A DNA stretch of 42,600 nt, from the NCBI GenBank assembly GCA_046261745.1, contig JBHEOD010000012.1:1-42600 (forward strand), written 5' to 3'. Shown here one piece after another: positions 168-22,349 of this stretch (positions are counted from its first letter, which is position 1; each line of letters begins with the position of its first letter). Below the pieces are notes generated by a model. It was given only the letters and a program-made list of their open reading frames with translations. It did not search any database and was not told where the DNA came from. Position numbers and translations under genes: made by a program. The DNA is from Candidatus Binatia bacterium (GTDB taxonomy: Bacteria; Desulfobacterota; Binatia; UBA1149; CAITLU01).

Positions 168-743
168 ATGTCGACCACAGCGACCGACGCGGGATTTGAC
201 GTGAACGGGTACTTCGCACTGATCGAGTGCGGAACGATTTCGCCGGACGACAGGGTGGAGCTCCTCGAGGGCCAGATCGTGTCGATGGCTCCCCCGTCGC
301 CGCTCCATGACGCGGTCGTCTACCACATCCAGCAGCTTCTGGCCTCGCGACTGCCGCCCGGAACGCTCGTGCGCCCCCAAATGACGTTTCTTGCCGGGCC
401 GAAGAGTGTCCCCGAGCCCGACGTTGCGATCGTTCCGGGGCGCAACACCGATTACCTGCGGCGCCACCCGTCGAAGGTGCACCTGCTCGTGGAGGTGGCC
501 GACAGCTCCCTCGTCCAGGATCGTCTGACCAAGAGCGCCATCTATGCGCGTGCCGGCGTGCCCGCCTTCTGGATCGTGAACCTGCGCGATAGCAGCGTTG
601 AGTGCTTCACGGAACCTGACCAGGTCGGTCGCCGCTACGGGAAGACGATGCGCGCCATGGGGTCGACCACGCTGGTGCTGCCGGCCTATCCCGACGTTGT
701 GATCGAGGCGGCGCAGCTGTTTCCTTTCGACACTGACGAATAG
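168..743 (+). CDS. Uma2-family (DUF820) PD-(D/E)xK endonuclease
   Basis: 191-aa ORF. The layout is typical of Uma2 proteins: 'ELLEGQIV.MAP', 'PEPDVAIV', 'LLVEV.DSS...D...K...YA..GVP.FWIVN'. Confidence 0.8.
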   Translation: MSTTATDAGFDVNGYFALIECGTISPDDRVELLEGQIVSMAPPSPLHDAVVYHIQQLLASRLPPGTLVRPQMTFLAGPKSVPEPDVAIVPGRNTDYLRRHPSKVHLLVEVADSSLVQDRLTKSAIYARAGVPAFWIVNLRDSSVECFTEPDQVGRRYGKTMRAMGSTTLVLPAYPDVVIEAAQLFPFDTDE

Positions 744-4554: not shown

Positions 4555-4793
4555 TGGTCGCACTCCTGTTGTGCTCCGGGTCGATTGGAGACCGGGAGTC
4601 TTGTCAAAGATCCTGAGCAAAACCCACTCCCCATGGCCCGTTTGCCCGCCCGACCCTGTCGGCCGCCATCGAACCGGCCCGGGATGCTCCCAACGCTCCG
4701 ATGACGCATTGCGTTTGCGGCGTGCAGCGCCTATGGTCCCGTGGCTTTACTCTTTTAGGGCCCCTCTCTTGGCGCCCAAGGCCGAACCCAATC

Positions 4794-6647: not shown

Positions 6648-8144
6648 TCAGGCACTCACCGGCTCTGCCTTACCAAAGAGCTTTCTCAGCACGTCGATGT
6701 TGCTCGGCCGTGCAAGCGCCCAGACGCGGTCGCCCGGCGTGAACGCCGTATCCCCCTTTGGAATGAGATAGCGCCCACCCCTTTCGAGACTCGTGAGGAG
6801 GACTCCGGAAGGCAGGGCAAGGTCCACTACCCGGGTGCCCTTCGCGGCCGCACTGTTTCCCACCTCCATCTCGATGGTCACGAAGCCCTCGGGCAGAAGC
6901 ATGCCTGCAAGATGATCGTGTGCGGGCTCCTCGCGAAGTGGAACGATGCGTCCCAGTTTCACCGCCACCCACGGAATGGTGATTCCCTGCACGATCACCG
7001 AAAGCAGGACCACGAAGAAAACGAGGTTGAACAGATACTCCGAATTCGGAAAGCCGACGCTCCACGGAAGAGTGGCCAGGATAATGGGCGCAACGCCCCT
7101 GAGTCCCACCCACGAGACGAACAAGCGGTCCTTTCTCTCCAGGGTGGATGATCCCGGAGTGGCCAGGAAGACACTCAAGGGACGTGCGACGAACATCATG
7201 AAGCTGGAAAGAAGAATTCCTTCCTTCCAGACCGGGAGAAGATGGGACGGGGTGGAGAGAAGTCCGAGCGTCAGAAACACCAGGATCTGGGCGAGCCACG
7301 CGACTCCGTCATGAAATCGCTTGACGCTTCCTTTGTGGAGAAGCTCCGAGTTGCCGAGGAAGAGCCCGGCAATATAGACGGCAAGAAATCCGCTTCCACC
7401 AAGCGCCGAGGTGCCCGCGAAGAGGAAGATCACGAGTCCGAGGAGAAGTACGCTGTAGAGCCCCTCGTATTCGATCCCCGCGTGGTTGATCAGCCAGCGG
7501 AAGGCGTGGCCGCCGATCCATCCCAAGGCGAGGCCCAGCCCCCACTGCATGCCAAAGAGTGAGACGAAAGAGAAGACGTCCGTTGCCTGACCTGTCGCGT
7601 AGGCCAGCACACCCACGGTGAGGAAGATCGCCATGGGGTCGTTGCTGCCCGCTTCGAATTCCAGGGTGTCCTTGAGCCGGCCTTTGAGCGAAAGACTCCT
7701 CGCCCGGAGAATGCTGAACACCGCAGCGGCATCGGTGGACGAAACGATTGCTCCGAGAAGCAGCGCCTCGACCCACGAGCGACCCAAAACGACATTCGCG
7801 AAAACGGCCGTTGCCACTGCCGTGATGAGCGTCGCCAGCACGGAAAGTGAAAGCCCGACCGGCAGAATGGGACGCACGTTGTTCCATGACGTGCGCATGC
7901 CGCCGTCGAAGATGATGAACGTGAGGCAAACGCTGCCGACGGCGAACGACAGCGAGTAGTTGGTGAAATCGATTCCTCCCGGGCCTTCCACCCCGGCCAG
8001 CATGCCGATCCCGAGGAACAGGAGAAGGGAGGGGACTCCGAGGGCGGAGGAGATGCGATTGGTCAGGACCGAAAAAACCAGCAGGAACGAAGTGGAGAGC
8101 AGGAGGAACTCCAGCGAGTGGCCTTCGAACCGGAAGCCCTGCAT
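6648..8144 (-). CDS. K+/H+ (cation:proton) antiporter, CPA1 NhaP2/CvrA type, with a C-terminal TrkA-C domain
   Basis: Polytopic membrane protein with the 'AIVSSTDAAAVFSIL' exchanger signature. The C-terminal 'RVVDLALPSGVLLTSLERGGRYLIPKGDTAFTPGDRVWAL' is TrkA-C-like. Start re-picked at MQGFRFEGHS, 5 nt after the USP stop. Confidence 0.88.
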   Translation of the reverse strand: MQGFRFEGHSLEFLLLSTSFLLVFSVLTNRISSALGVPSLLLFLGIGMLAGVEGPGGIDFTNYSLSFAVGSVCLTFIIFDGGMRTSWNNVRPILPVGLSLSVLATLITAVATAVFANVVLGRSWVEALLLGAIVSSTDAAAVFSILRARSLSLKGRLKDTLEFEAGSNDPMAIFLTVGVLAYATGQATDVFSFVSLFGMQWGLGLALGWIGGHAFRWLINHAGIEYEGLYSVLLLGLVIFLFAGTSALGGSGFLAVYIAGLFLGNSELLHKGSVKRFHDGVAWLAQILVFLTLGLLSTPSHLLPVWKEGILLSSFMMFVARPLSVFLATPGSSTLERKDRLFVSWVGLRGVAPIILATLPWSVGFPNSEYLFNLVFFVVLLSVIVQGITIPWVAVKLGRIVPLREEPAHDHLAGMLLPEGFVTIEMEVGNSAAAKGTRVVDLALPSGVLLTSLERGGRYLIPKGDTAFTPGDRVWALARPSNIDVLRKLFGKAEPVSA

Positions 8145-8149
8145 CACCC

Positions 8150-9073
8150 CTACTCCATCCTTACGGCCAGGAAGGGCCGTTTCGTAAGCGAAAGAATGTG
8201 ACGCCCGGTCGATCCCAGAAGGAGCTTTCTCGCACGAGAACGAGGAGCCGCCGTCGTGACGGTCATCCACGCCTTCTTCTCCTCTGCGAAATCTACGACC
8301 GTGTGCGCGACGGACCTGGATTCCTTCAGGATTGTCGTCGTCGAGCTGACCCCTTGTTCCTTCAAGGCCGCCTGGATCCGCGCAAGGACCCTGAAAGCTT
8401 CAGGCTCGGTCTTTCGCTGCTTGAGCGATTCGAGGAAAGTTCCTCTCGCCGGGTCCACATACACGAGGTCCACATTCGCCGAAGCCGATTTTGCCGTCTT
8501 CGCCAGGAAGCGAATGGAGAGAGCGGACGGTGGCACTGCCGCGTCCACCGCTACAACGAAGCGGACCGAACGGGAAAAGTCGGACTCGCTTATCTGCGGC
8601 TTGATGATGAGGACAGGCAGCGTGGCGGTAAGGCTGGCGGTTTCGGAAAAACTTCCGAGGAACCAATAGGGAAGGCCCCTTCGGTCGCTGCTCGCCATTA
8701 CGAGCGCATCCACGCCAAGGCGGCGACCGTAGCGCGACAACTGTGCTACGTGATCTTCTTTCGCCGGCGAGTCGGATTGAAGAACCCGGGCGCCTTCGAA
8801 GTTGAAGCGTCCTTCGCTGGAACTCGTGATTCTCCCCAGGGCCTCGTGAGCGAAACGCCCCTTCGTCGCCCGGTAGAACTGGGTGGGCATCGCATAGAGC
8901 GAGGCATGGGTCACCGATACGAGGGAGATCTCCGGAAAAAGACCCCTCTTCTGGAAAAGTTGCACGACACGGCAAAAATGTTCGAAGTTCCATCCCTTGC
9001 AGGAGGTATGATCGAGCGCCACGAGTGCCTTCTTCATGGCCGGGACGCTATCGAGAAACTCCGGTGCCTTCAA
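8150..9073 (-). CDS. Universal stress protein with two tandem UspA domains
   Basis: 307 aa with two repeats of the Usp fold ('ALVMASSDRRGLPYWFLGSFSE', 'MTVTTAAPRSRARKLLLGSTGRHIL'). An alternative start is at 9037 (MKKALVALD). Confidence 0.85.
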   Translation of the reverse strand: MKAPEFLDSVPAMKKALVALDHTSCKGWNFEHFCRVVQLFQKRGLFPEISLVSVTHASLYAMPTQFYRATKGRFAHEALGRITSSSEGRFNFEGARVLQSDSPAKEDHVAQLSRYGRRLGVDALVMASSDRRGLPYWFLGSFSETASLTATLPVLIIKPQISESDFSRSVRFVVAVDAAVPPSALSIRFLAKTAKSASANVDLVYVDPARGTFLESLKQRKTEPEAFRVLARIQAALKEQGVSSTTTILKESRSVAHTVVDFAEEKKAWMTVTTAAPRSRARKLLLGSTGRHILSLTKRPFLAVRME

Positions 9074-13859: not shown

Positions 13860-14411
13860 TCAGGCGTTGGTGGCGCCTTGCTGCAACAGGCGCTCGAGCG
13901 GTGTGCCGCCGCGGTGCATCTCCAGCAGCCGGTCGGGATCGTACTCGACGCCGATCGGATTGAGCGCGAAGGCGCCGCTGCGGAACCACGCGTCCAGCTC
14001 CTGGTTGGTCGCGAAGTTGTCGATCTGAAGCTCGACGCGCGTGCCGTCCGGATCGCTGTAGTACATCGAAGTGGTCGGCCCGTGATTGATGCACCAGCCC
14101 GGCACGATGCCGGCCGCCTTGAGCCGCTCGTAGGTGCCGAGCAGGTCGTCGAGGCTGCGATACGTGAAGGCCACGTGGTCCACGCCGGCCGCCAGCGGAT
14201 TGAGATCCTCGAGTTGGGGAAGGTTGACGAACGCGACGCGGTGATGCTCGTCGTCGTAGGTGAGGAAGGTCAGCATCGCGTCGGCGAAGACCGGCGCAGC
14301 CCCGAGCACCGTGCTGTACCACTGGACCATCGCGTCGTAGCGCGGCGTGCGAAAAACGAGGTGGGCGAGCTTGGCCGGCGAAACCGGCCTCGCAGCGGGA
14401 TTCTCAGTCAT
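13860..14411 (-). CDS. VOC (glyoxalase / extradiol dioxygenase) family protein, BphC-III-related size class
   Basis: 183 aa. 'LAHLVFRT', 'HHRVAF', 'GVDHVAFTY', 'HGPTTSMYYSDPDGTRVELQ'. Its start overlaps the TetR stop by 8 nt. Confidence 0.85.
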   Translation of the reverse strand: MTENPAARPVSPAKLAHLVFRTPRYDAMVQWYSTVLGAAPVFADAMLTFLTYDDEHHRVAFVNLPQLEDLNPLAAGVDHVAFTYRSLDDLLGTYERLKAAGIVPGWCINHGPTTSMYYSDPDGTRVELQIDNFATNQELDAWFRSGAFALNPIGVEYDPDRLLEMHRGGTPLERLLQQGATNA

Positions 14412-15159
14412 GCGTTTCTCCTGGCAGTTGGGCGGCGGCCTCGCCGGGCGCGACGGCCAGCCCTTTCATGAGGATCTCGAGCACCCAGCGAGAGTGCGCT
14501 TCGATCACGTCCGGATCGTGCGTGGCGACATTGTAGAGTCGCGACAAGAGCGGCGCGGCGCCGAAGAAGTGCACCGTGGCGCCGATGGCGATGCTCGACA
14601 GGTGCGCCGCCGGCACCGGACGAATGCTGCCGGTGGCTATTGCCGCATCGATGAAGCGGTCGAGCCGGGAGTGCAGCGGACCGAGATGGCGTTCGACGAG
14701 CCAGTCGAACCTTGCACCGCCTGAACGAAGCTCGTTCAGGATGATGAACGTGTGCGCGGGGTGCCGTGCGGTAAAGCCTGCAAACTCTCGAAGCAGTTTC
14801 TGCAGCGCGTCGACGGGCGCGAGTTCGGCGGCCGATTCCTCGAGCCGGTCCATGCTGCGCTGGAGATCGTCGAACGCGTGATCGACGGCCGCCCGCCACA
14901 GGTTCTCTTTCGATCCAAAGTGGTAATGCACGAGCGGGTGGCCGATCGAGGCCGCCTTCGCGATGGATGGAATGGATGCACCGTCGAAGCCGTCACGCGC
15001 GAACAGGTCGAGCGCCGCTTTGAGAATGGCCTGGGCCGTCGCGCCGTTGCCGGTCGTCGATCGCACCGGCGCTTCGACGGCGCGGGAGGCGGCGGCCGTG
15101 CGGCCTCCCGTCGTGGAAGTCTTCGCACGCGTGGCGACGGTGGGGGCCGCGTTCTTCAT
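14404..15159 (-). CDS. TetR/AcrR family transcriptional regulator
   Basis: Start at MKNAAP. HTH region 'ILKAALDLFARDGFDGASIPSIAKAASIGHPLVHYHFGSKENLW'. The 673-aa track ORF is a run-on of this frame. Confidence 0.9.
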   Translation of the reverse strand: MKNAAPTVATRAKTSTTGGRTAAASRAVEAPVRSTTGNGATAQAILKAALDLFARDGFDGASIPSIAKAASIGHPLVHYHFGSKENLWRAAVDHAFDDLQRSMDRLEESAAELAPVDALQKLLREFAGFTARHPAHTFIILNELRSGGARFDWLVERHLGPLHSRLDRFIDAAIATGSIRPVPAAHLSSIAIGATVHFFGAAPLLSRLYNVATHDPDVIEAHSRWVLEILMKGLAVAPGEAAAQLPGETHD

Positions 15160-16973
15160 GCGACGGCTTCCTGCAAGGCCGGGGCGAGTGCCAACACGAC
15201 GCGGATCGTATCTTCGAGAACCGCCCGAGCCTCTCGCGCGCCTGCGGCCTGCCCGGCGTGGCGCCAGGCCACGTGGCCGTCGGGTCTGACGAGCAGCGCG
15301 CCGCCCGCGTCGAGTCCGCTGACAGCCGCCCAGGTGCCGCAAGCATCGCTCCACTCGCCGGCGGCGCCGCCGCCGATCACGGCGAGATCGATGTCGAGAC
15401 CCGACTCGAGCACCAGCGCACGCACGGCGTCGATCCACGCGGCACCGAGCGGATCGGTGATCAGCGTGAAGCGCCCCGGGCGCGCGACATCGTGGGTGGA
15501 CACGCGATGTCCCAGCTTCTCGACCCACGCGTGCGGCAATCGAGAGCCGGGCCGTGCAACGGGAGTGTAGACGCGCACGTCGAAGGGAGGCGCGTCGGAG
15601 CCGTCGCCGACGACAGCGCCGGTCTCGTAGCGAAAGCCGAGATCGAGCCCGCCGAAATCGAAATGCTCCGCCTGCGACTGGATCACCTCGTGAAGCTCGC
15701 GGCGCTTGGTGACGGCCGCGTCGCCGTCGCCGTCGAGGCCGAAATCGACGCGGTCGTCGGCGTCGCCCATCACCACCACGGGATCGACGGCGGCGAGAGT
15801 CGACACGCCGAGCACCATGTCGACCTCCATCATTCGCATCGCGTTGCGCACGCTCTGGTCGCTGTTGGTCTGCGCCACCGGGCGCCTCTCGGTCTCGTAG
15901 CTGTCGAGCAGGCCGGCGCCGGCCCTCCCGTGCACGACGGCTGCGAGCTTCCACGCGAGATTGTGTGCGTCCTGGATGCCGGTGTTCATGCCGAGTCCGC
16001 CGGAGGGTGGAAAGCGGTGCGCGGCGTCTCCGGCCAGGAATACGCGGCCTTTGCGGTACCGGTCGGCAAGCTGCGCACTCATGTTCCAGTTGCCCACGGA
16101 AGTGATGCGGAACGCGGCCGAAGGATCGCCGATGGCATCGCGCACGAGGCGTTCGGCAATTTCTGCGGGGAAGTCGTCGGCCGTGTGCGGGTCGTCGTAC
16201 GGCACCATCAGCGCCCATGTGCGCGCGAGGTCGAAGCCGATGATCACGCCGCGCGTACGTGCGCCGGCGATCCAGAAGAGCGGGCCGGTGCGTCCGGCGA
16301 TCCAGCGTTCGAGATTGGCCTCGAAGTAGATCGAGACGAACTTCTGCAGCGACGAGGGTCCCACCATCTCGATTCCGAGCCCGCGGCGCACGCGGCTGCC
16401 GGCGCCGTCGCAGCCGACCACCCACGCTGCCATCACGTGGGATTCACTGCCGTCGCGTTCGCGGATGTCGAGCCGTACGTCGCCGCCGCGGTCGCTTACC
16501 GCGACCACTTCGCTGTCGAAACGAACCTGCGTTCGCGCTGCATGCCGGACGAGGCCGAGCAGCAGCGGCTCGAGGCGGTTCTGCGCCAGATTCACAATCG
16601 ACGTCGGGCTGAGTGCGAGACGTTCGACAAGGGCCCCCGCATTGCCTCCCTGCAGCGAGATGCGTCCGAGTTCGCGGCCGGCGAGGCTCTCGCACCACGT
16701 GATCCATCGAAGCAGCATGGGAGGGGCGGCGGCTTCCTGGATGGCCGCCGCGATGCCCAGCTCCCGAAGAATCTCCATCGTGCGCGTGTTGATGACGTGG
16801 GCTTGCGGGTCGCGATGAAGAGCGGTGCGACGCTCGAGGACGCAACTCGTGACGCCGAACCGGTCGAGCAGCGCCGCCAGCACGAGGCCGACCGGACCGG
16901 CGCCGACAATGGCTACGTCGACGGCCGTCGAGCGGTAAGAGGAAGGATGGGCGGGGTTGGGCGGGTCGGTCAT
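15156..16973 (-). CDS. FAD-dependent aromatic-ring monooxygenase (PheA/TfdB-type hydroxylase)
   Basis: Start at MTDPPN. 'VAIVGAGPVGLVLAALL' and 'VFLAGDAAHRFPPSGGLGMNTGIQDAHNLAWKL'. It has a 4-nt ATGA overlap with the TetR start. Confidence 0.9.
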   Translation of the reverse strand: MTDPPNPAHPSSYRSTAVDVAIVGAGPVGLVLAALLDRFGVTSCVLERRTALHRDPQAHVINTRTMEILRELGIAAAIQEAAAPPMLLRWITWCESLAGRELGRISLQGGNAGALVERLALSPTSIVNLAQNRLEPLLLGLVRHAARTQVRFDSEVVAVSDRGGDVRLDIRERDGSESHVMAAWVVGCDGAGSRVRRGLGIEMVGPSSLQKFVSIYFEANLERWIAGRTGPLFWIAGARTRGVIIGFDLARTWALMVPYDDPHTADDFPAEIAERLVRDAIGDPSAAFRITSVGNWNMSAQLADRYRKGRVFLAGDAAHRFPPSGGLGMNTGIQDAHNLAWKLAAVVHGRAGAGLLDSYETERRPVAQTNSDQSVRNAMRMMEVDMVLGVSTLAAVDPVVVMGDADDRVDFGLDGDGDAAVTKRRELHEVIQSQAEHFDFGGLDLGFRYETGAVVGDGSDAPPFDVRVYTPVARPGSRLPHAWVEKLGHRVSTHDVARPGRFTLITDPLGAAWIDAVRALVLESGLDIDLAVIGGGAAGEWSDACGTWAAVSGLDAGGALLVRPDGHVAWRHAGQAAGAREARAVLEDTIRVVLALAPALQEAVA

Positions 16974-17012
16974 GGGGTTCCCCCGGGCGGAATGCCGGGG
17001 ATAGTCAGGTGT

Positions 17013-17030
17013 CTTGACAGATCTGTCAAG
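17013..17030. promoter_or_regulatory. Perfect 18-bp palindrome; candidate TetR operator overlapping a TTGACA -35 element
   Basis: cttgaca-gatc-tgtcaag, 40 nt upstream of the monooxygenase ATG. On the minus strand TTGACA is followed, 17 nt later, by GACTAT. Confidence 0.5.
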
Positions 17031-17384
17031 GGTCGTGCCGCCGCCTTGGGTGCTGAATTTCAAGGTTGGCCAGCGACCACGAAACCCCGGACTCGTTGCC
17101 GAGCGTCTTGATTCAGACCAGCGCTGTCCGCAGGGATCTCTCCCCACGGCGCGGCGATCGCCGGTCTGTGGTCGGAAGTCGTCCGACGATCGCCTTGACG
17201 CACTCCGTCATCCTAAGGATTTCATGCGGATGTAGTTGTGGACGTAGTGCGAGCGTGGTTGCCGGCGTAGTATGCATGGGCACCGGATCGGCGATGCTTG
17301 CTCCGGTTCTTCCATCGTTTTGACTACGGTTTGCGGAACGGCACATATGCTGCGGATGAAGGGTGAGGTTCGGGAGGGAGAACG

Positions 17385-17954
17385 ATGAGCGATCAGGACA
17401 GCTTCATCGATTTCTATGAGGTGCTGGAGATCAGCAGCAGCGCCCATCCGGACACGGTTGCGCGTGTCTACCGGCTGCTCGCCCAGCGCTTCCACCCGGA
17501 CAACCAGGAAACCGGCGATGCCGAGCGCTTCACCGCCATCCTGCAGGCCTACAAGGTTCTGAGCGATCCGGAACTGCGGGCCCAGTTCGACGTCCACCAC
17601 CAGCAGCAGAAGTCGGTCAAGTGGCGCCTGTTCGATGCCAGGGAGGCATCCGGCGGCATTTCTTCAGACCGCGAAATCCGCTTCGGCGTGCTCAGCCTTC
17701 TCTACAACAAGCGAAGGCGCGACCCTGAGCATCCGGCGATCCCGATGTTCGAGATCGAGAGCCTGCTCGGAATTCCTCGCGAGCATCTCGAGTTCAGTTT
17801 CTGGTTTTTGCGGGAAAAGGGCCTGATCGCGCGCACCGACGGGGGAAGCTGCACGATCACGGCCGCTGGCGTGGAGTACCTGGACAACAACGGACTGCAG
17901 GAGCGCGCGAAGATCGTCGCGGGCCTTCCTGCCGGCGGTCGCGGGCCTCGTTGA
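17385..17954 (+). CDS. J-domain protein (class III) with a winged-helix-like C-terminal domain
   Basis: 'DFYEVLEISSSAHPDTVARVYRLLAQRFHPDNQ...FTAILQAYKVLSDPELRAQFD' carries the HPD motif. There is no G/F or Zn-finger region. The tail reads 'LLGIPREHLEFSFWFLREKGLIARTDGG'. GGGAGGGAG lies before the ATG. Confidence 0.88.
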   Translation: MSDQDSFIDFYEVLEISSSAHPDTVARVYRLLAQRFHPDNQETGDAERFTAILQAYKVLSDPELRAQFDVHHQQQKSVKWRLFDAREASGGISSDREIRFGVLSLLYNKRRRDPEHPAIPMFEIESLLGIPREHLEFSFWFLREKGLIARTDGGSCTITAAGVEYLDNNGLQERAKIVAGLPAGGRGPR

Positions 17955-18050
17955 CGGGACGCGCCAGCTCGGCGCTTGAGTGCGGCCATAGCCGCACGAA
18001 GGGGAGGGAACCGGCTTTGGGGCGCAAAGCCTGAATGCCGGTGAATTGCC

Positions 18051-19922
18051 ATGGCTAAAATTCTCGGCATCGACTTGGGGACGACGAATTCGGTCATGGC
18101 CGTCTGGGACGGTCGCGAGCCCCGGCTGATCGCGAGCCAGCAGGGCAGTCGCCTCACTCCGTCGGTGGTCGCGTTCGGCGCCAACGGCGACGTCTTCGTG
18201 GGCGAGGTCGCGCGCCGCCAAGCCGTGGCCAATGCGCGCTGCACGATCTTTTCCGCCAAGCGTTTCATCGGTCAGTCATTCGACTCCGTCTCCGCGGATC
18301 GCCAGGCCGTGGCGTATGAGATTGCCGAGGGCGACCAGGGCGAGGTCCAGATCGTTGTCGGCGAGCGCCGCTTCTCGCCCGAGCAGATCTCCGCCCACGT
18401 GCTTCGCGAACTCAAGAAATCCGCCGAGGCCTTTCTCGGCGAGCCAGTCGACGGCGCGGTCATCACGGTGCCCGCCTACTTCAACGACGCGCAGCGCACC
18501 GCCACCAAGGAAGCCGGCCGCCTGGCCGGCCTGGACGTCCGCCGCATCATCAACGAGCCTACCGCGGCCGCGCTCGCGTACGGACTCGACAAGAGCAACG
18601 AGAAAGTCGTAGCGGTCTACGACTTTGGCGGCGGCACCTTCGACGTCTCTGTGCTTACGGTCGGCCAGGAGGTCATCGAGGTGATCGCCACCCACGGCGA
18701 CACGCATCTCGGCGGCGACGATATCGACGCACGCATCGTCGCGTGGCTGCTCAAGCACTTCGAAACCAAGACCGGCGTGCACATCAACGGCGACGCCACG
18801 GCCCACCAGCGCCTGCGCGAAGCTGCCGAGTACGCCAAGATCGACCTTTCCACCCGCACCGCCACCGAAATCAACCTTCCGTTCCTTGCCGCCAACGCCA
18901 GTGGGCCGGTTCATCTCGAGGTGGAGCTGTCACGATCCGAACTCGAGGCGATGATCTCGGATCTCGTGGACCGCACGTTGTCCTCCTGCGTGCAGGTTCT
19001 CTCGGATGCCGGCAAGCAGCCGTCCGAGATCGACGAGATTGTTCTCGTCGGAGGCTCTTCGCGAATCCCTCTCGTTCAGCAGCGCGTGGCGGCATACTTC
19101 CACAAGGAGCCCCGGCGCACGGTCAATCCCGACGAGGTCGTCGCGCTGGGCGCGGCCGTCCAGGCCGGTGTCATCAGCGGCGAGGTCAAGGGCCTCGTGT
19201 TGCTCGATGTGACTTCGCTCTCTCTCGGCGTGGAAACCCACGACGGTCTCACGGCCGTCGTCATTCCACGCAACACCACCATTCCCACCGAGGCCATGCG
19301 CACGTTCACTACTGCCACCGACGGGCAGACCAGTGTCGAAGTGCACGTGGTCCAAGGCGAGGCGGAGCAGGGCCGCCTCAACGACTCGCTCGGACGCTTC
19401 GACCTCGACGGCCTCGGCGCGGCTTCGGCCGGCACGCCGCAAATCGACGTCACCTTTGCGATCGACATCAACGGCATGGTCAAGGTGAGCGCGCGCGATC
19501 GCAATACCGGCCGTACGCAGACCGTGTCGGTTTCGGCGCGCACGGCGGTGGCCAGAGAACCGGCTCTCGGGGATGCGCGGGGGGCCGCCACCGATGAGTA
19601 CGAAATGGACCGCAATACGGCCCGCGAGATGGACGGCGATGCGCCCCGCCAGATGGACCGCGAGTTGGTGCAGGACGCGACCCGCGATACCGGATTGCCG
19701 TCGGCTGCCCAGGCGGTCCTTCACGACGCCGAGCAGATCCTCGGTCAGCACGGCAAGGCGCTCGCCGGCATCGAGCGTACCAGCATCGAGCAAACCGTCG
19801 AGCAACTGCGCGAGATGCTCGACGGACACGCCTCGTTGTCCGAAGTGGATCGATCGCGGACAGCACTGCGCGAAATGCTCAACCGTGCGAAAGAGTCGTT
19901 GCTCGCGCGCATCGTTCGATGA
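18051..19922 (+). CDS. Hsp70-family chaperone (DnaK paralogue-like) with a divergent C-terminal lid
   Basis: 623 aa. Motifs 'GIDLGTTNS', 'VPAYFNDAQRTATKEAGRLAGL', 'DFGGGTFDVS', 'LVGGSSRIP', and the linker 'LLDVTSLSLG'. Confidence 0.93.
   Translation: MAKILGIDLGTTNSVMAVWDGREPRLIASQQGSRLTPSVVAFGANGDVFVGEVARRQAVANARCTIFSAKRFIGQSFDSVSADRQAVAYEIAEGDQGEVQIVVGERRFSPEQISAHVLRELKKSAEAFLGEPVDGAVITVPAYFNDAQRTATKEAGRLAGLDVRRIINEPTAAALAYGLDKSNEKVVAVYDFGGGTFDVSVLTVGQEVIEVIATHGDTHLGGDDIDARIVAWLLKHFETKTGVHINGDATAHQRLREAAEYAKIDLSTRTATEINLPFLAANASGPVHLEVELSRSELEAMISDLVDRTLSSCVQVLSDAGKQPSEIDEIVLVGGSSRIPLVQQRVAAYFHKEPRRTVNPDEVVALGAAVQAGVISGEVKGLVLLDVTSLSLGVETHDGLTAVVIPRNTTIPTEAMRTFTTATDGQTSVEVHVVQGEAEQGRLNDSLGRFDLDGLGAASAGTPQIDVTFAIDINGMVKVSARDRNTGRTQTVSVSARTAVAREPALGDARGAATDEYEMDRNTAREMDGDAPRQMDRELVQDATRDTGLPSAAQAVLHDAEQILGQHGKALAGIERTSIEQTVEQLREMLDGHASLSEVDRSRTALREMLNRAKESLLARIVR
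19602..19673 (+). repeat. Degenerate 3 x 24-nt in-frame tandem repeat inside the Hsp70 SBD-lid linker
   Basis: gaaatggaccgcaatacggcccgc / gagatggacggcgatgcgccccgc / cagatggaccgcgagttggtgcag. Copies 1 and 2 match at 19/24 positions. The repeat encodes EMDRNTAR-EMDGDAPR-QMDRELVQ. Confidence 0.45.
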
Positions 19923-21196
19923 TCCGACACAAGATGCTGCGCCCGCTTCTCGTGGCCGCACTGGCCGCGGCATGGGTGGGGACGGCCTCGGCAGCGCCGC
20001 AGTCGATCGCAATTCCCGCCTACTTTTATCCGGTCTTTCCCGATCCGCTCTGGGCGCAGATGGAAGAGTCGGTGCCGACGGTTTCGTTCGCGGTGATGAA
20101 CCCCGCCAGCGGCGCGGGCGCTGCTCCGGACGCGAACTACACCAGCCAGATCGCGGCGACGCGGGCAGCGGGCGTGAAGATCATCGGCTACGTGACTTCG
20201 AGCTACGCCACGCAGACGCTGGCGGCAGTCAAGGCCGAGATCGACAACTACTACGCCTGGTACGACGTGGACGGCATCTTCATCGACGAAGCGGACAATA
20301 ACTGCGTGACGCAGCCGTACTATTCCGAGCTCGACGCGTACACGAAGGCCAAGGGCGGCCTCGGCCTGACGGTGATCAATCCCGGCACCACGACGCCGGA
20401 GTGCTTCGCCACGGCCGCGGACGTGATCCTGAATTTCGAAGGCTCGTACATGCAGTACCAGTCCTGGGCTCCTCTGGGATGGGAGGCGGGGTACGACGCG
20501 AGCCGCTTTTGGCACCTGGTGTACGCCACCGACGAGGCCGACATGCCCATGGCCGTGCTGATGAGCCAGGCTCGGGGCGCAGGCTACGTGTACGTCACTC
20601 CCGACATGCTGATTCCGAATCCGTGGGACTCCCTGCCCGGCCCGTCCTACTGGGCCACCGAACTCGCGTACGTGCAGCCGATCGACGGAGCTTGCCCGGC
20701 GCCCATCACCAAGCCCAAGCTACAGGTGCGAGGCCTCGACACTCCGGGCGACGACGATTCGATGAAGTTCGCCGGACGGTTCACGCTGGCGGGCACACCC
20801 GCGGTCGATCCGGTGGCCGACGGGCTGCGCGTGGTGATCGGTGACAGCGGCGGCTCCGCCGCCGACGTGACGATTGCGCCGGGCGTGTACGCGGGCGAGT
20901 CCGGCTGGATCGTCGGGAACAATCGCTGGGTCTACCGCGACGACAGCGAGACTCCGGCCGACGGCATCACCAAGGTGATGCTCAAGAGGAAAGCAGGCGA
21001 CGCGTCCGCGCACTTCACGTTCCGTGTGACCGCGCCCGAAGGCGCGTTCGCGGTGAGCGCGGCCGAGCTGCCGCTCACGGGAGTCTTGCTGCTGGCGCCT
21101 GCCCAGCCGACCACGAACTGCGCGACCGCGACGTTTCCCGGTCCCAAGCCGACCTGCGTCGTCACCGGCGGCGGCAGCGGCATCCGTTGCCGGTAG
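19919..21196 (+). CDS. Secreted spherulation-specific family 4 (spherulin-4 / GH135-like) protein with an unassigned Cys-containing C-terminal domain
   Basis: Signal peptide MIRHKMLRPLLVAALAAAWVGTASA|A. 'IPAYFYP....W', 'AVMNPASG', 'GYVTSSY', 'VDGIFIDEA' and 'INPGT' are typical of the family. The ATG overlaps the Hsp70 TGA. Confidence 0.8.
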   Translation: MIRHKMLRPLLVAALAAAWVGTASAAPQSIAIPAYFYPVFPDPLWAQMEESVPTVSFAVMNPASGAGAAPDANYTSQIAATRAAGVKIIGYVTSSYATQTLAAVKAEIDNYYAWYDVDGIFIDEADNNCVTQPYYSELDAYTKAKGGLGLTVINPGTTTPECFATAADVILNFEGSYMQYQSWAPLGWEAGYDASRFWHLVYATDEADMPMAVLMSQARGAGYVYVTPDMLIPNPWDSLPGPSYWATELAYVQPIDGACPAPITKPKLQVRGLDTPGDDDSMKFAGRFTLAGTPAVDPVADGLRVVIGDSGGSAADVTIAPGVYAGESGWIVGNNRWVYRDDSETPADGITKVMLKRKAGDASAHFTFRVTAPEGAFAVSAAELPLTGVLLLAPAQPTTNCATATFPGPKPTCVVTGGGSGIRCR

Positions 21197-21200
21197 CGCG

Positions 21201-22349
21201 TCAGGCCTTTACTTGCTCGAGGGCCCAGTCGAGCCACGGCAGCAGCGCTTCGATGTCAGAGCGCTCGACGGTGGCGCCGCCCCAGATCCGCAGCCCCGGC
21301 GGTGCATCGCGGTAGCCCGCGATGTCGTAGGCCACGCCTTCCTTGTCGAGCAGGGAGACCATCTTCTTGATGGCCGCCGCGCGTGCGTCGGCGTCGAGGT
21401 TTTCGAACCACGGATCGACGACGTTCAGGCAGATGGACGTGCACGAGCGCGTCTTCGCATCGCCGGCAAGAAACGCGAAGGTGCCCGACGTTTTCACCCA
21501 CGCGGTGATCGCCGCAAGGTTGCTCTCCGAACGCGCAACCAGGCCCTCCACGTTGCCGACGCTCTCGGCCCACGCGAGCGCATCGAGCGCGTCCTCCACG
21601 CACAGCATGGACGGCGTGTTGATCGTGGAGCCCTGGAAGATCTCCTCGTCGAGCTTGCCCTTCTTGGTCATGCGGAAGATCTTCGGCATCGGCCACGACG
21701 GTGTGTAGGTCTGAAGCCGTTCCACGGCGCGCGGCGACAGTGCGATCATGCCGTGTCCGCCCTCTCCGCCGAGAACTTTCTGCCAGGACCACGTCACGAC
21801 ATCGAGCTTGTCCCACGGCAGGTCCATCGCGAAGACCGCCGACGTGGCGTCGCAGATCGTAAGGCCCTTGCGGTCGGCCGGGATCCACTCGCCGTCGGGC
21901 ACGCGCACGCCCGAGGTCGTGCCGTTCCACGTGAACACGACGTCGTTGTCGAAGTTCACGCTGGCGAGGTCGGGTATTTCGCCGTAGCCGGCCTTGAGGA
22001 TACGCGGCTCGAGCTTGAGCTGCTTGGTGACGTCGGTGATCCAGCCTTCGCCGAAGCTTTCCCAGGCCATCATGTCGATGCCGCGCGCGCCGAGCAGGGA
22101 CCACATGGCCATTTCGACGGCGCCGGTGTCGGAGCCGGCGACGATGCCGAGGCGAAAGTCCTTCGGCATGCCGAGCACGGACTTGCTGCGCTCGATGACG
22201 GCCGCGAGCTTCTCCTTGCCGATCCTGGCGCGATGCGAGCGGCCGAGGGCGGCGTCGCCGAGGGCCTCGAGGCTCCAGCCGGGGCGCTTGGCGCAGGGGC
22301 CGGAGGAAAACTGGGGACGGGCGGGTCTGGCGGCAGGCTTGCTGGACAT
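21201..22349 (-). CDS. serC: Phosphoserine aminotransferase
   Basis: Start re-picked at MSSKPAARP, with AGAGG 6 nt upstream. '[12 protein letters not shown]', '[13 protein letters not shown]' (PLP Lys), 'STINTPSML'. Confidence 0.9.

Follow-up and report, generated by a model that had tools for sequence, protein, structure and literature searches.

A two-gene J protein–Hsp70 module with a predicted winged-helix tail in Candidatus Binatia, and a spherulin-4 gene in the variable slot behind it

The 42,600-nucleotide stretch of a Candidatus Binatia bacterium genome analyzed here (contig JBHEOD010000012.1, hereafter the window) carries three consecutive genes on the same strand, which encode a J-domain protein, an Hsp70 and a secreted protein of the spherulin-4 family (Sph4). 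The best explanation of this arrangement, and one that we consider reasonably probable, is a specialised chaperone module of two genes, the J protein and its Hsp70, with Sph4 standing in a variable slot behind the pair and fused with it into one transcription unit in the window genome. A preliminary description of the same DNA had seen in the three genes a dedicated chaperone module tied to an extracytoplasmic hydrolase. The J/Hsp70 half of that proposal is supported by the linkage of both genes in all 11 loci compared and by scores that set the Hsp70 apart as a paralog; spherulin-4 as functional partner of the pair is not. The genes themselves lie where that description had placed them, as the open reading frames (ORFs) and Pfam matches agree, and the DnaJ, HSP70 and Spherulin4 models each match their own protein. 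Their GC content at third codon positions (GC3, 0.81–0.87) is that of real genes in a genome of ~66% GC. The main features are the following:

17385–17954, plus strand: J-domain protein gene, 189 amino acids (aa) (ORF list, Pfam)
~17661–17918, plus strand: MarR-like winged-helix tail of the J protein, aa ~93–178 (predicted by AlphaFold2 and Foldseek)
18051–19922, plus strand: Hsp70 gene, 623 aa (ORF list, Pfam)
19605–19663, plus strand: 24-nucleotide (nt) tandem repeat, 2.5 copies, in the region coding for the Hsp70 lid (Tandem Repeats Finder, score 83, 82% matches)
19919–21196, plus strand: Sph4 gene, 425 aa (ORF list, Pfam)
21201–22349, minus strand: convergent serC (phosphoserine transaminase), the downstream boundary of the unit (NF002841, 663 bits, cutoff 477)

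The J protein belongs to a family in which a J domain is followed by the same winged helix-turn-helix tail (J-wHTH). A scan of one genome per species returned at least 557 J-wHTH loci, of which 80, mostly from Acidobacteriota, were kept. Wherever an examined locus encodes an Hsp70 of the window clade, the J-wHTH gene lies directly upstream of it, in 11 loci out of 11 (the window, L001, L006, L009, L011, L012, L013, L091, L092, L096 and L097). These loci lie in four unrelated contexts, namely zwf-pgl/serC, guaB-guaA/der-era, uvrBC/histidine kinase and Band_7-NfeD. Because the adjacency is complete over four unrelated contexts, the two genes behave, as judged from gene order, as a mobile and conserved two-gene unit. 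The J homolog of L014 (59% identity) has no Hsp70 nearby.

In the J protein, the Pfam DnaJ domain (PF00226) at aa 9–69 (nt 17409–17591, E = 2.7e-16) is the only Pfam match. The HPD motif (H37-P38-D39) is invariant in an alignment of 24 homologs (45–91% identity). Neither a G/F region, nor a Zn-finger (CXXCXGXG), nor a DnaJ_C domain was detected in the protein with Pfam, in line with its earlier assignment to the class-III J proteins, and NCBIfam DnaJ models match only the first ~70–90 residues, far under their cutoffs. A homolog search with the whole protein gave 2031 proteins; among the best 120 of these, most align over >80% of the query, so that conservation extends from the J domain to the tail. 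Its pattern in the 24-sequence alignment is R..G.L.LLY.KR...P..P......E.LLG.PREHLEF..W.L.E.......D.....IT..GVEY. Foldseek with the full-length model returned J domains only, and the tail was hence modelled again on its own. The resulting AlphaFold2 model has a predicted local distance difference test (pLDDT) score of 80.6 overall and >90 in the core, a predicted template modelling score (pTM) of 0.71, and the order H1-b-H2-H3-b-b-H4. Its Foldseek neighbours in the PDB are DNA-binding winged helices with template modelling (TM) scores of 0.55–0.69 (operator-bound CggR, HpaR, RovA, MftR, PecS, MarR, IclR), together with winged helices that do not bind DNA (an O-methyltransferase, the Rio2 kinase). 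The guess that this tail is a winged helix is thus borne out at the level of predicted structure. At the level of sequence, the tail matched no Pfam model, those of the MarR/HTH clan included, and its profile gave nothing significant among PDB sequences; a marginal match to the PADLOC WH_III-A model was found (E = 0.006).

The second gene encodes a complete Hsp70, as had been proposed, with a divergent lid that contains the tandem repeat at 19605–19663. Pfam HSP70 (PF00012) spans its full length (E = 1.9e-201) and the closest solved structure is E. coli DnaK. The two DnaK models differ in their outcome: the protein scores 730.6 bits on the TIGR02350 prok_dnaK equivalog, below the cutoff of 822.55, and 744.5 bits on NF001413 (PRK00290), above the cutoff of 648. 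A canonical Myxococcales DnaK used as control (P0423) reaches 979.7 bits on TIGR02350 and 1012 on PRK00290, and orthologs of the window Hsp70 reach 746 and 729 on TIGR02350. The protein also stays below the HscA model TIGR01991 (543.8 vs a cutoff of 708.55). Variation in the lid makes the orthologs differ in length, from 557 aa (an ortholog whose lid is truncated) to 687 aa. The J protein of the window is 83–89% identical to those of its relatives and the Hsp70 72–81%, i.e., the chaperone diverges faster than its J partner. Two related genomes carry extra Hsp70 genes: P0402 (54% identical) shares an 807-kb contig with L091, and P0397 (55% identical) shares a metagenome-assembled genome (MAG) with L011. 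Both are more divergent than the window Hsp70 on the DnaK models. Given the low TIGR02350 score, the variable lid, the faster divergence and these extra genes, the window Hsp70 is, by such comparisons, a divergent DnaK paralog and not the housekeeping DnaK. DnaK duplication occurs in about 6% of bacterial genomes (PMC11019930).

The additional, more divergent Hsp70 paralogs of Binatia were observed in L094 (7001–8866, on the 807-kb contig of L091) and in L095 (1–1870, in the MAG of L011), and include protein P0398. They score 620–652 bits on TIGR02350, have a common N-terminus (MAKILGIDLGTTNS) and no adjoining J gene; a domain search of the small ORFs beside the second paralog gave nothing informative. 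Hsp70 appears to have expanded in the Binatia lineage.

The position of Sph4 was compared over the seven Binatia loci, which have a common backbone: zwf-pgl-(optional inserts)-J-Hsp70-(variable slot)-serC (convergent)-Ppnp-(Wzx)-GT2-(GT4)-SnoaL. In every one of them serC comes directly after the slot, whose contents and junctions are:

L011 (closest relative, J 88% identical): slot empty
L012: an APH-family kinase gene
Window: Sph4, with a 4-nt overlap between Hsp70 and Sph4
L001: Sph4, after a gap of 35 nt
L013: Sph4, after ~190 nt of spacer with an inverted repeat and a separate Shine-Dalgarno (SD) sequence
L091: an APH-family gene, then Sph4 after a gap of 93 nt
L092: an APH-family gene, a 443-aa ORF and Sph4

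No informative domains were found in the 443-aa ORF. Among the loci compared, the 4-nt overlap between Hsp70 and Sph4 is seen in the window genome only. In a more distant genome, GCA_016218925.1, the pair (L006) and an Sph4 ortholog (L093, 51–52% identical) are on different contigs, and the latter is surrounded by rml genes, GT2, GT4, an acyltransferase and a GDSL/AlgX-like gene, i.e., by a polysaccharide cluster. The preliminary description had named a survey of gene neighbourhoods as the place where its three-gene architecture could fail. In that survey the trio is not conserved as neighbours: L011 and L012 lack Sph4, L091 and L092 have other genes between it and Hsp70, and in GCA_016218925.1 it is unlinked. 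Because slot contents and junctions vary in this way, and because of the unlinked ortholog, Sph4 is, on this genomic comparison, a frequent but dispensable neighbour of the pair within one lineage, which is found elsewhere with polysaccharide genes and not with chaperones.

Two observations on the slot can be added. The APH-family gene follows Hsp70 in three Binatia loci (L091, 6852–7907; L092, 4723–5775; L012, 12523–13491), so that the 3′ end of this Hsp70 gene is coupled to different genes in different loci; in L091 it overlaps the Hsp70 stop codon by 4 nt. The APH proteins have weak similarity to Ser/Thr kinase and homoserine kinase models. Also, the Hsp70–Sph4 spacer of L013 contains a long, near-perfect inverted repeat (4684–4775, arms of ~22 bp), which could be a terminator, a stabiliser or a REP-like element.

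The Sph4 protein itself was correctly described as a secreted, GH135-like spherulin-4 protein. Pfam Spherulin4 (PF12138) matches aa 29–251 (E = 3.8e-44; 151.5 bits vs a cutoff of 30.2; profile positions 1–238 of 239). The N-terminus, MIRHKMLRPLLVAALAAAWVGTASA followed after the cleavage site by APQ, has a basic n-region, a hydrophobic core and an A-S-A cleavage motif; this signal peptide (aa 1–25) is kept in the aligned orthologs. The ATG of Sph4 overlaps the TGA of Hsp70 in the sequence ATGA at 19919–19922, as previously noted. An alternative start at Met6 (19934), which would remove the overlap, was ruled out since the N-termini of 16 orthologs align with the start at 19919. Sph4 matches the structures of fungal Sph3 (5d6t/5c5g, E ~2e-15), and in the alignment to 5d6t the residues F-I-D-E (in IDEAD) lie over F-F-D-E, and N-F-E-G over V-F-E-A. 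The catalytic residues of Sph3 are, as we take them to be numbered after Bamford et al. (2015), D166, E167 and E222. The Sph4 residues that align with these three are all present; D123 and E174 are invariant in 17 Sph4 orthologs and E124 is replaced by Q in three. A C-terminal domain of ~165 aa (aa ~260–425) with conserved cysteines has no Pfam match, and Cys259, Cys401, Cys413 and Cys424 are invariant in the ortholog alignment. With the Sph3 catalytic residues aligned and the signal peptide and cysteines conserved, Sph4 looks like an active secreted enzyme.

The signals around the pair that could bear on its expression are:

17317–17348, plus strand: promoter-like block TTTTGACT-N18-CATAT upstream of the J gene (conserved in alignment; CATAT at 17344–17348)
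17372–17379, plus strand: SD sequence GGGAGGGA of the J gene, 5 nt before the ATG at 17385 (read from the sequence)
17980–17997, plus strand: 7-bp GC-rich hairpin gtgcggc-cata-gccgcac in the J–Hsp70 spacer, without a U-tract after it (read from the sequence)

The block TTTTGACTAAGG...GGCACATAT could be aligned and is kept in 7 of 7 Binatia loci, ~40–70 nt before the J start. Its pattern occurs once in the window and a strong SD sequence lies downstream of it; a strict sigma-70 scan did not call it. We infer that the block is the promoter of the J–Hsp70 unit. No conserved palindrome was found upstream of J in a search for operators, which gave the -35/-10-like block only. The 96-nt spacer between J and Hsp70 (17955–18050) does contain the hairpin attributed to it, and folds with a minimum free energy of -48.2 kcal/mol (z = -2.7 vs shuffled controls). 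A GCGGC-N4-GCCGC hairpin followed by an AGGGG(A/T)A tract is also present in the spacers of L012 and L013, and not in all orthologous spacers. Promoter-like or terminator-like sites were not called at the J–Hsp70 or Hsp70–Sph4 junctions, nor at the hairpin. The structured spacer may set the ratio of J protein to Hsp70.

We hypothesize that the winged helix would anchor the J protein on DNA or on a single protein as its specific target, after which the J domain, through its HPD motif, would trigger ATP hydrolysis in the partner Hsp70, which would clamp onto the target and remodel it, following the logic of HscB-HscA. The J–Hsp70 unit would start at the conserved promoter-like block upstream of J. 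Loss of intervening DNA in the variable slot would have led to the 4-nt overlap of Hsp70 and Sph4 in the window genome, where Sph4 is probably co-transcribed and translationally coupled with Hsp70. The comparative data show a variable placement of Sph4, and for this reason we regard the overlap as a by-product of a deletion in the slot. It seems more likely that Sph4 acts in extracellular polysaccharide processing, with the glycosyltransferase and flippase genes, than as an integral partner of the chaperone.

Some observations weigh against this explanation, and others lend weight to its rivals. The ATGA overlap speaks for coupled expression in the window genome, and in five of the seven Binatia loci Sph4 lies downstream of the pair, in each case on its strand, which leaves room for a lineage-specific functional link between them. 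One may go further and take the J protein, Hsp70 and spherulin-4 as one system, in which the pair would serve to produce, export or regulate specifically the hydrolase or its polymer; to the common strand, overlap and frequent position behind the pair would be added the GT2, Wzx and GT4 genes that L001 and L091 have a few kb further downstream, and the PilZ domain of the Acidobacterial J homologs, a cyclic di-GMP (c-di-GMP) receptor domain often tied to exopolysaccharide control. However, the absence of Sph4 from the closest relative and from L012, the intervening genes of L091 and L092, and the separate spacer, inverted repeat and SD sequence of Sph4 in L013 are difficult to reconcile with such a system. 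The pair also occurs without Sph4 in three other genome contexts, the unlinked Sph4 of GCA_016218925.1 lies in an exopolysaccharide cluster, the housekeeping genes serC and Ppnp stand between Sph4 and the glycosyltransferase genes, and independent gain or loss of Sph4 and of the pair is already partly seen. Thus, we hold a single three-gene system to be unlikely. Against the specialised nature of the pair, it may also be said that no nucleotide-exchange factor is coded nearby, and that a canonical dnaK-grpE-dnaJ set, which the preliminary description had expected elsewhere, was not found in these genomes, where the Hsp70s among the matches listed are the divergent P0402, P0397 and P0398. The extreme form of this objection is that the Hsp70 is a housekeeping dnaK with an unusual dnaJ and nothing specialised about it. 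The PRK00290 model of the NCBI annotation pipeline PGAP would indeed name it DnaK (744 bits vs 648), as would its closest solved structure. Nevertheless, it lies under the TIGR02350 cutoff and ~250 bits below the canonical control, neither grpE nor a class-A dnaJ is nearby, one ortholog (557 aa) has a truncated lid, relatives carry additional Hsp70 genes in the same contig or MAG, and it evolves faster than its J partner; we therefore judge a housekeeping role very improbable, in agreement with the earlier view that this is not the housekeeping dnaK operon.

The other objections concern the target of the tail. The invariant residues of its recognition helix (P-R-E-H-L-E) include two glutamates, its wing is short and lacks the basic tip that is typical of MarR proteins, and by residue count the domain is roughly charge-neutral; for these reasons DNA binding by the predicted domain is uncertain. 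The same features bear on two more specific rivals. If the tail were a protein–protein module unrelated to DNA, serving dimerisation or a single conserved client, the pair would be a client-specific machine like HscA-HscB for IscU. The surface of helix 3 (PREHLEF..W) hardly changes between Binatia and Acidobacteriota, which is easier to explain by a conserved protein partner than by operators that diverge, and the near-neutral charge and the Foldseek matches to winged helices that do not bind DNA point the same way. No candidate client stands consistently beside the pair, the 77 Acidobacterial loci showing lineage synteny only, and the best structural matches are DNA-binding domains; we retain this reading as a tentative possibility. 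Somewhat doubtful, in our opinion, is the rival according to which J-wHTH is a DNA-binding transcription factor, acting on its own operon or on a regulon and tuned by the partner Hsp70 in a titration loop as in HspR-DnaK or sigma32-DnaK/DnaJ. It would account for the nearest structures (DNA-bound CggR, HpaR, MftR and PecS), for the conserved block upstream of J and for rare fusions of J-wHTH to ParA/MinD-like ATPases, type Ia ParA proteins being known to carry an N-terminal DNA-binding wHTH. On the other side are the lack of a conserved palindrome or operator upstream beyond the -35/-10-like block, the invariant acidic residues in the recognition helix, and the lack of a significant match of the tail to DNA-binding families, the PADLOC hit excepted. 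Winged helices also serve in protein interaction and dimerisation, as in the O-methyltransferase and Rio2 kinase found by Foldseek.

By analogy, the specialised two-gene module would act like the HscA-HscB and HscC-DjlC pairs of E. coli, with a different targeting domain. With HscA-HscB and HscC-DjlC/DjlB it has in common a non-housekeeping Hsp70 encoded beside a dedicated class-III J protein that combines the HPD motif with a unique targeting domain, without G/F region or Zn-finger, and without an adjoining nucleotide-exchange factor. It differs from HscA-HscB in that its Hsp70 is DnaK-like, as the TIGR01991 score indicates, its J protein falls below the hscB model TIGR00714 (16.4 bits vs a cutoff of 46.75), and no Fe-S cluster genes are near the pair. 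The second domain of HscB is a C-terminal helical bundle and DjlC has a membrane anchor, whereas the second domain of the window J protein is a predicted MarR-like winged helix. With the MarR and CggR winged helices this tail shares the fold and the order of secondary-structure elements at the TM scores given above; it differs from them in its shorter wing, its acidic invariant recognition helix, its fusion to a J domain and the lack of a significant profile match.

Sph4 resembles Sph3 of Aspergillus (GH135, galactosaminogalactan cluster) in its Spherulin4 domain, its aligned catalytic motifs, its extracytoplasmic location and its association, in relatives, with glycosyltransferase genes. Aspergillus Sph3 has a membrane anchor, whereas Sph4 is bacterial, with a cleavable Sec-type signal peptide and the additional Cys-containing C-terminal domain. 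Equivalents of Uge3, Agd3 or Ega3 were not seen in the window.

The family at large extends well beyond Binatia. A search of 1.84 billion representative proteins with the tail profile gave 1037 clusters (50% identity), 640 of them at E <= 1e-10, and in the members examined the tail follows a J domain, except in P0367, where Pfam finds none. Two architectures dominate: proteins of ~190 aa consist of J domain and tail, and proteins of ~300 aa have in addition an N-terminal region of ~100 aa, which in many members is a PilZ domain by Pfam. The c-di-GMP-binding motifs RxxxR and DxSxxG of PilZ are invariant in an 11-member alignment. The ~300-aa form with PilZ is that of Acidobacteriota (Bryobacterales, Terriglobia; many of the loci among L015–L090). 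The Acidobacterial PilZ-J-wHTH protein is a candidate c-di-GMP-responsive J protein. No Hsp70 gene was found within 10 kb in 77 J-wHTH loci of ~50% identity (mostly Acidobacteriota). When the neighbours of these 77 loci were clustered, genes named from sequence as MoxR-like AAA+, amidase, Lnt, YchF and SPFH recurred; they have no functional theme in common, and their pattern fits lineage synteny. Exosortase/PEP-CTERM genes, present in L004 and L008, were not among the recurring neighbours, and a link to them was dropped. Some Acidobacteriota genomes have tandem J-wHTH copies (e.g., L004, 8001–8897 and 8978–9871). In rare proteins (P0237, 1031 aa; P0238, 540 aa; P0240, 778 aa), one or two J-wHTH units precede a ParA/MinD-like P-loop ATPase domain, and these fusions hint at a DNA- or positioning-related role of the family. 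A limited literature search, which included a large survey of J proteins (PMC10410713), gave no description of a J-domain–winged-helix or PilZ-J architecture.

A described parallel to these proteins is in Myxococcus xanthus, whose DnaK paralogs include the PilZ-DnaK chaperones CsdK1 and CsdK2, and in which one set acts on the DNA/nucleoid-related client CdbS (PMC10313047; PMC11019930). There, as here, extra DnaK-type proteins with diverged substrate-binding or lid regions are found, and Hsp70 is linked to c-di-GMP receptor domains. In M. xanthus, PilZ is fused to the Hsp70 itself, whereas in the Acidobacterial relatives, known from sequence alone, it is fused to the J-wHTH co-chaperone; the window proteins differ from CsdK1/CsdK2 in having no PilZ domain. 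A bolder extension, which we rate as fairly improbable, is that J-wHTH proteins are a widespread family of targeting co-chaperones that bring Hsp70 to a DNA-bound or nucleoid target, gated by PilZ and c-di-GMP in Acidobacteriota and, in Binatia and a few other lineages, tied permanently to a DnaK paralog of its own. If this were true, J-wHTH would include the first J-domain proteins that respond to c-di-GMP, and a second messenger would act through chaperones directly on gene expression or chromosome organisation; plausible downstream targets would then be biofilm or polysaccharide genes, for instance the adjacent Sph4.

Searches over the whole window added little to this picture. No grpE or canonical dnaJ is present among its genes and no CIRCE element was found with up to 3 mismatches, which agrees with the earlier reading of the locus; the sole HAIR-like match is at chance level and away from the locus. 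Rfam gave no match for the whole window, nor for the leader and spacer, and with the PADLOC defence models neither Hsp70 nor Sph4 had a match, the J tail giving the marginal one mentioned above. Between pgl and the J gene lies an island (13860–17147, minus strand) of glyoxalase, TetR and FAD-monooxygenase genes, at least the last of which is also found upstream of J in L013 and L091; the island is missing in L001, L011 and L012, and is thus a second variable slot flanking the chaperone pair. Further away, a stretch at 6648–9073 (minus strand) has a GC content of 0.59 vs ~0.67 and a strong AT skew, codes for a TrkA_C-domain Na+/H+ exchanger and a tandem universal stress protein, and may have been acquired horizontally. 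A gene for a Uma2-family putative restriction endonuclease at the start of the window (168–743) is unrelated to the chaperone locus.

The overlap of Hsp70 and Sph4 seems to have arisen locally, when genes were lost from a variable slot, and does not look like a conserved system; annotators and neighbourhood-based predictors should therefore not transfer a "chaperone-dependent glycosidase" function from this locus. From specialised Hsp70/J pairs one can learn how an unfolding machine of general use comes to serve a single task. To our knowledge, few such pairs are understood in bacteria, HscA-HscB being the main one. As its targeting domain is recognisable but unmodelled, as the unit travels between genomes, and as its J protein belongs to a large family that in Acidobacteria also carries PilZ, the pair described here is a tractable entry for asking what a winged helix fused to a J domain recognises.

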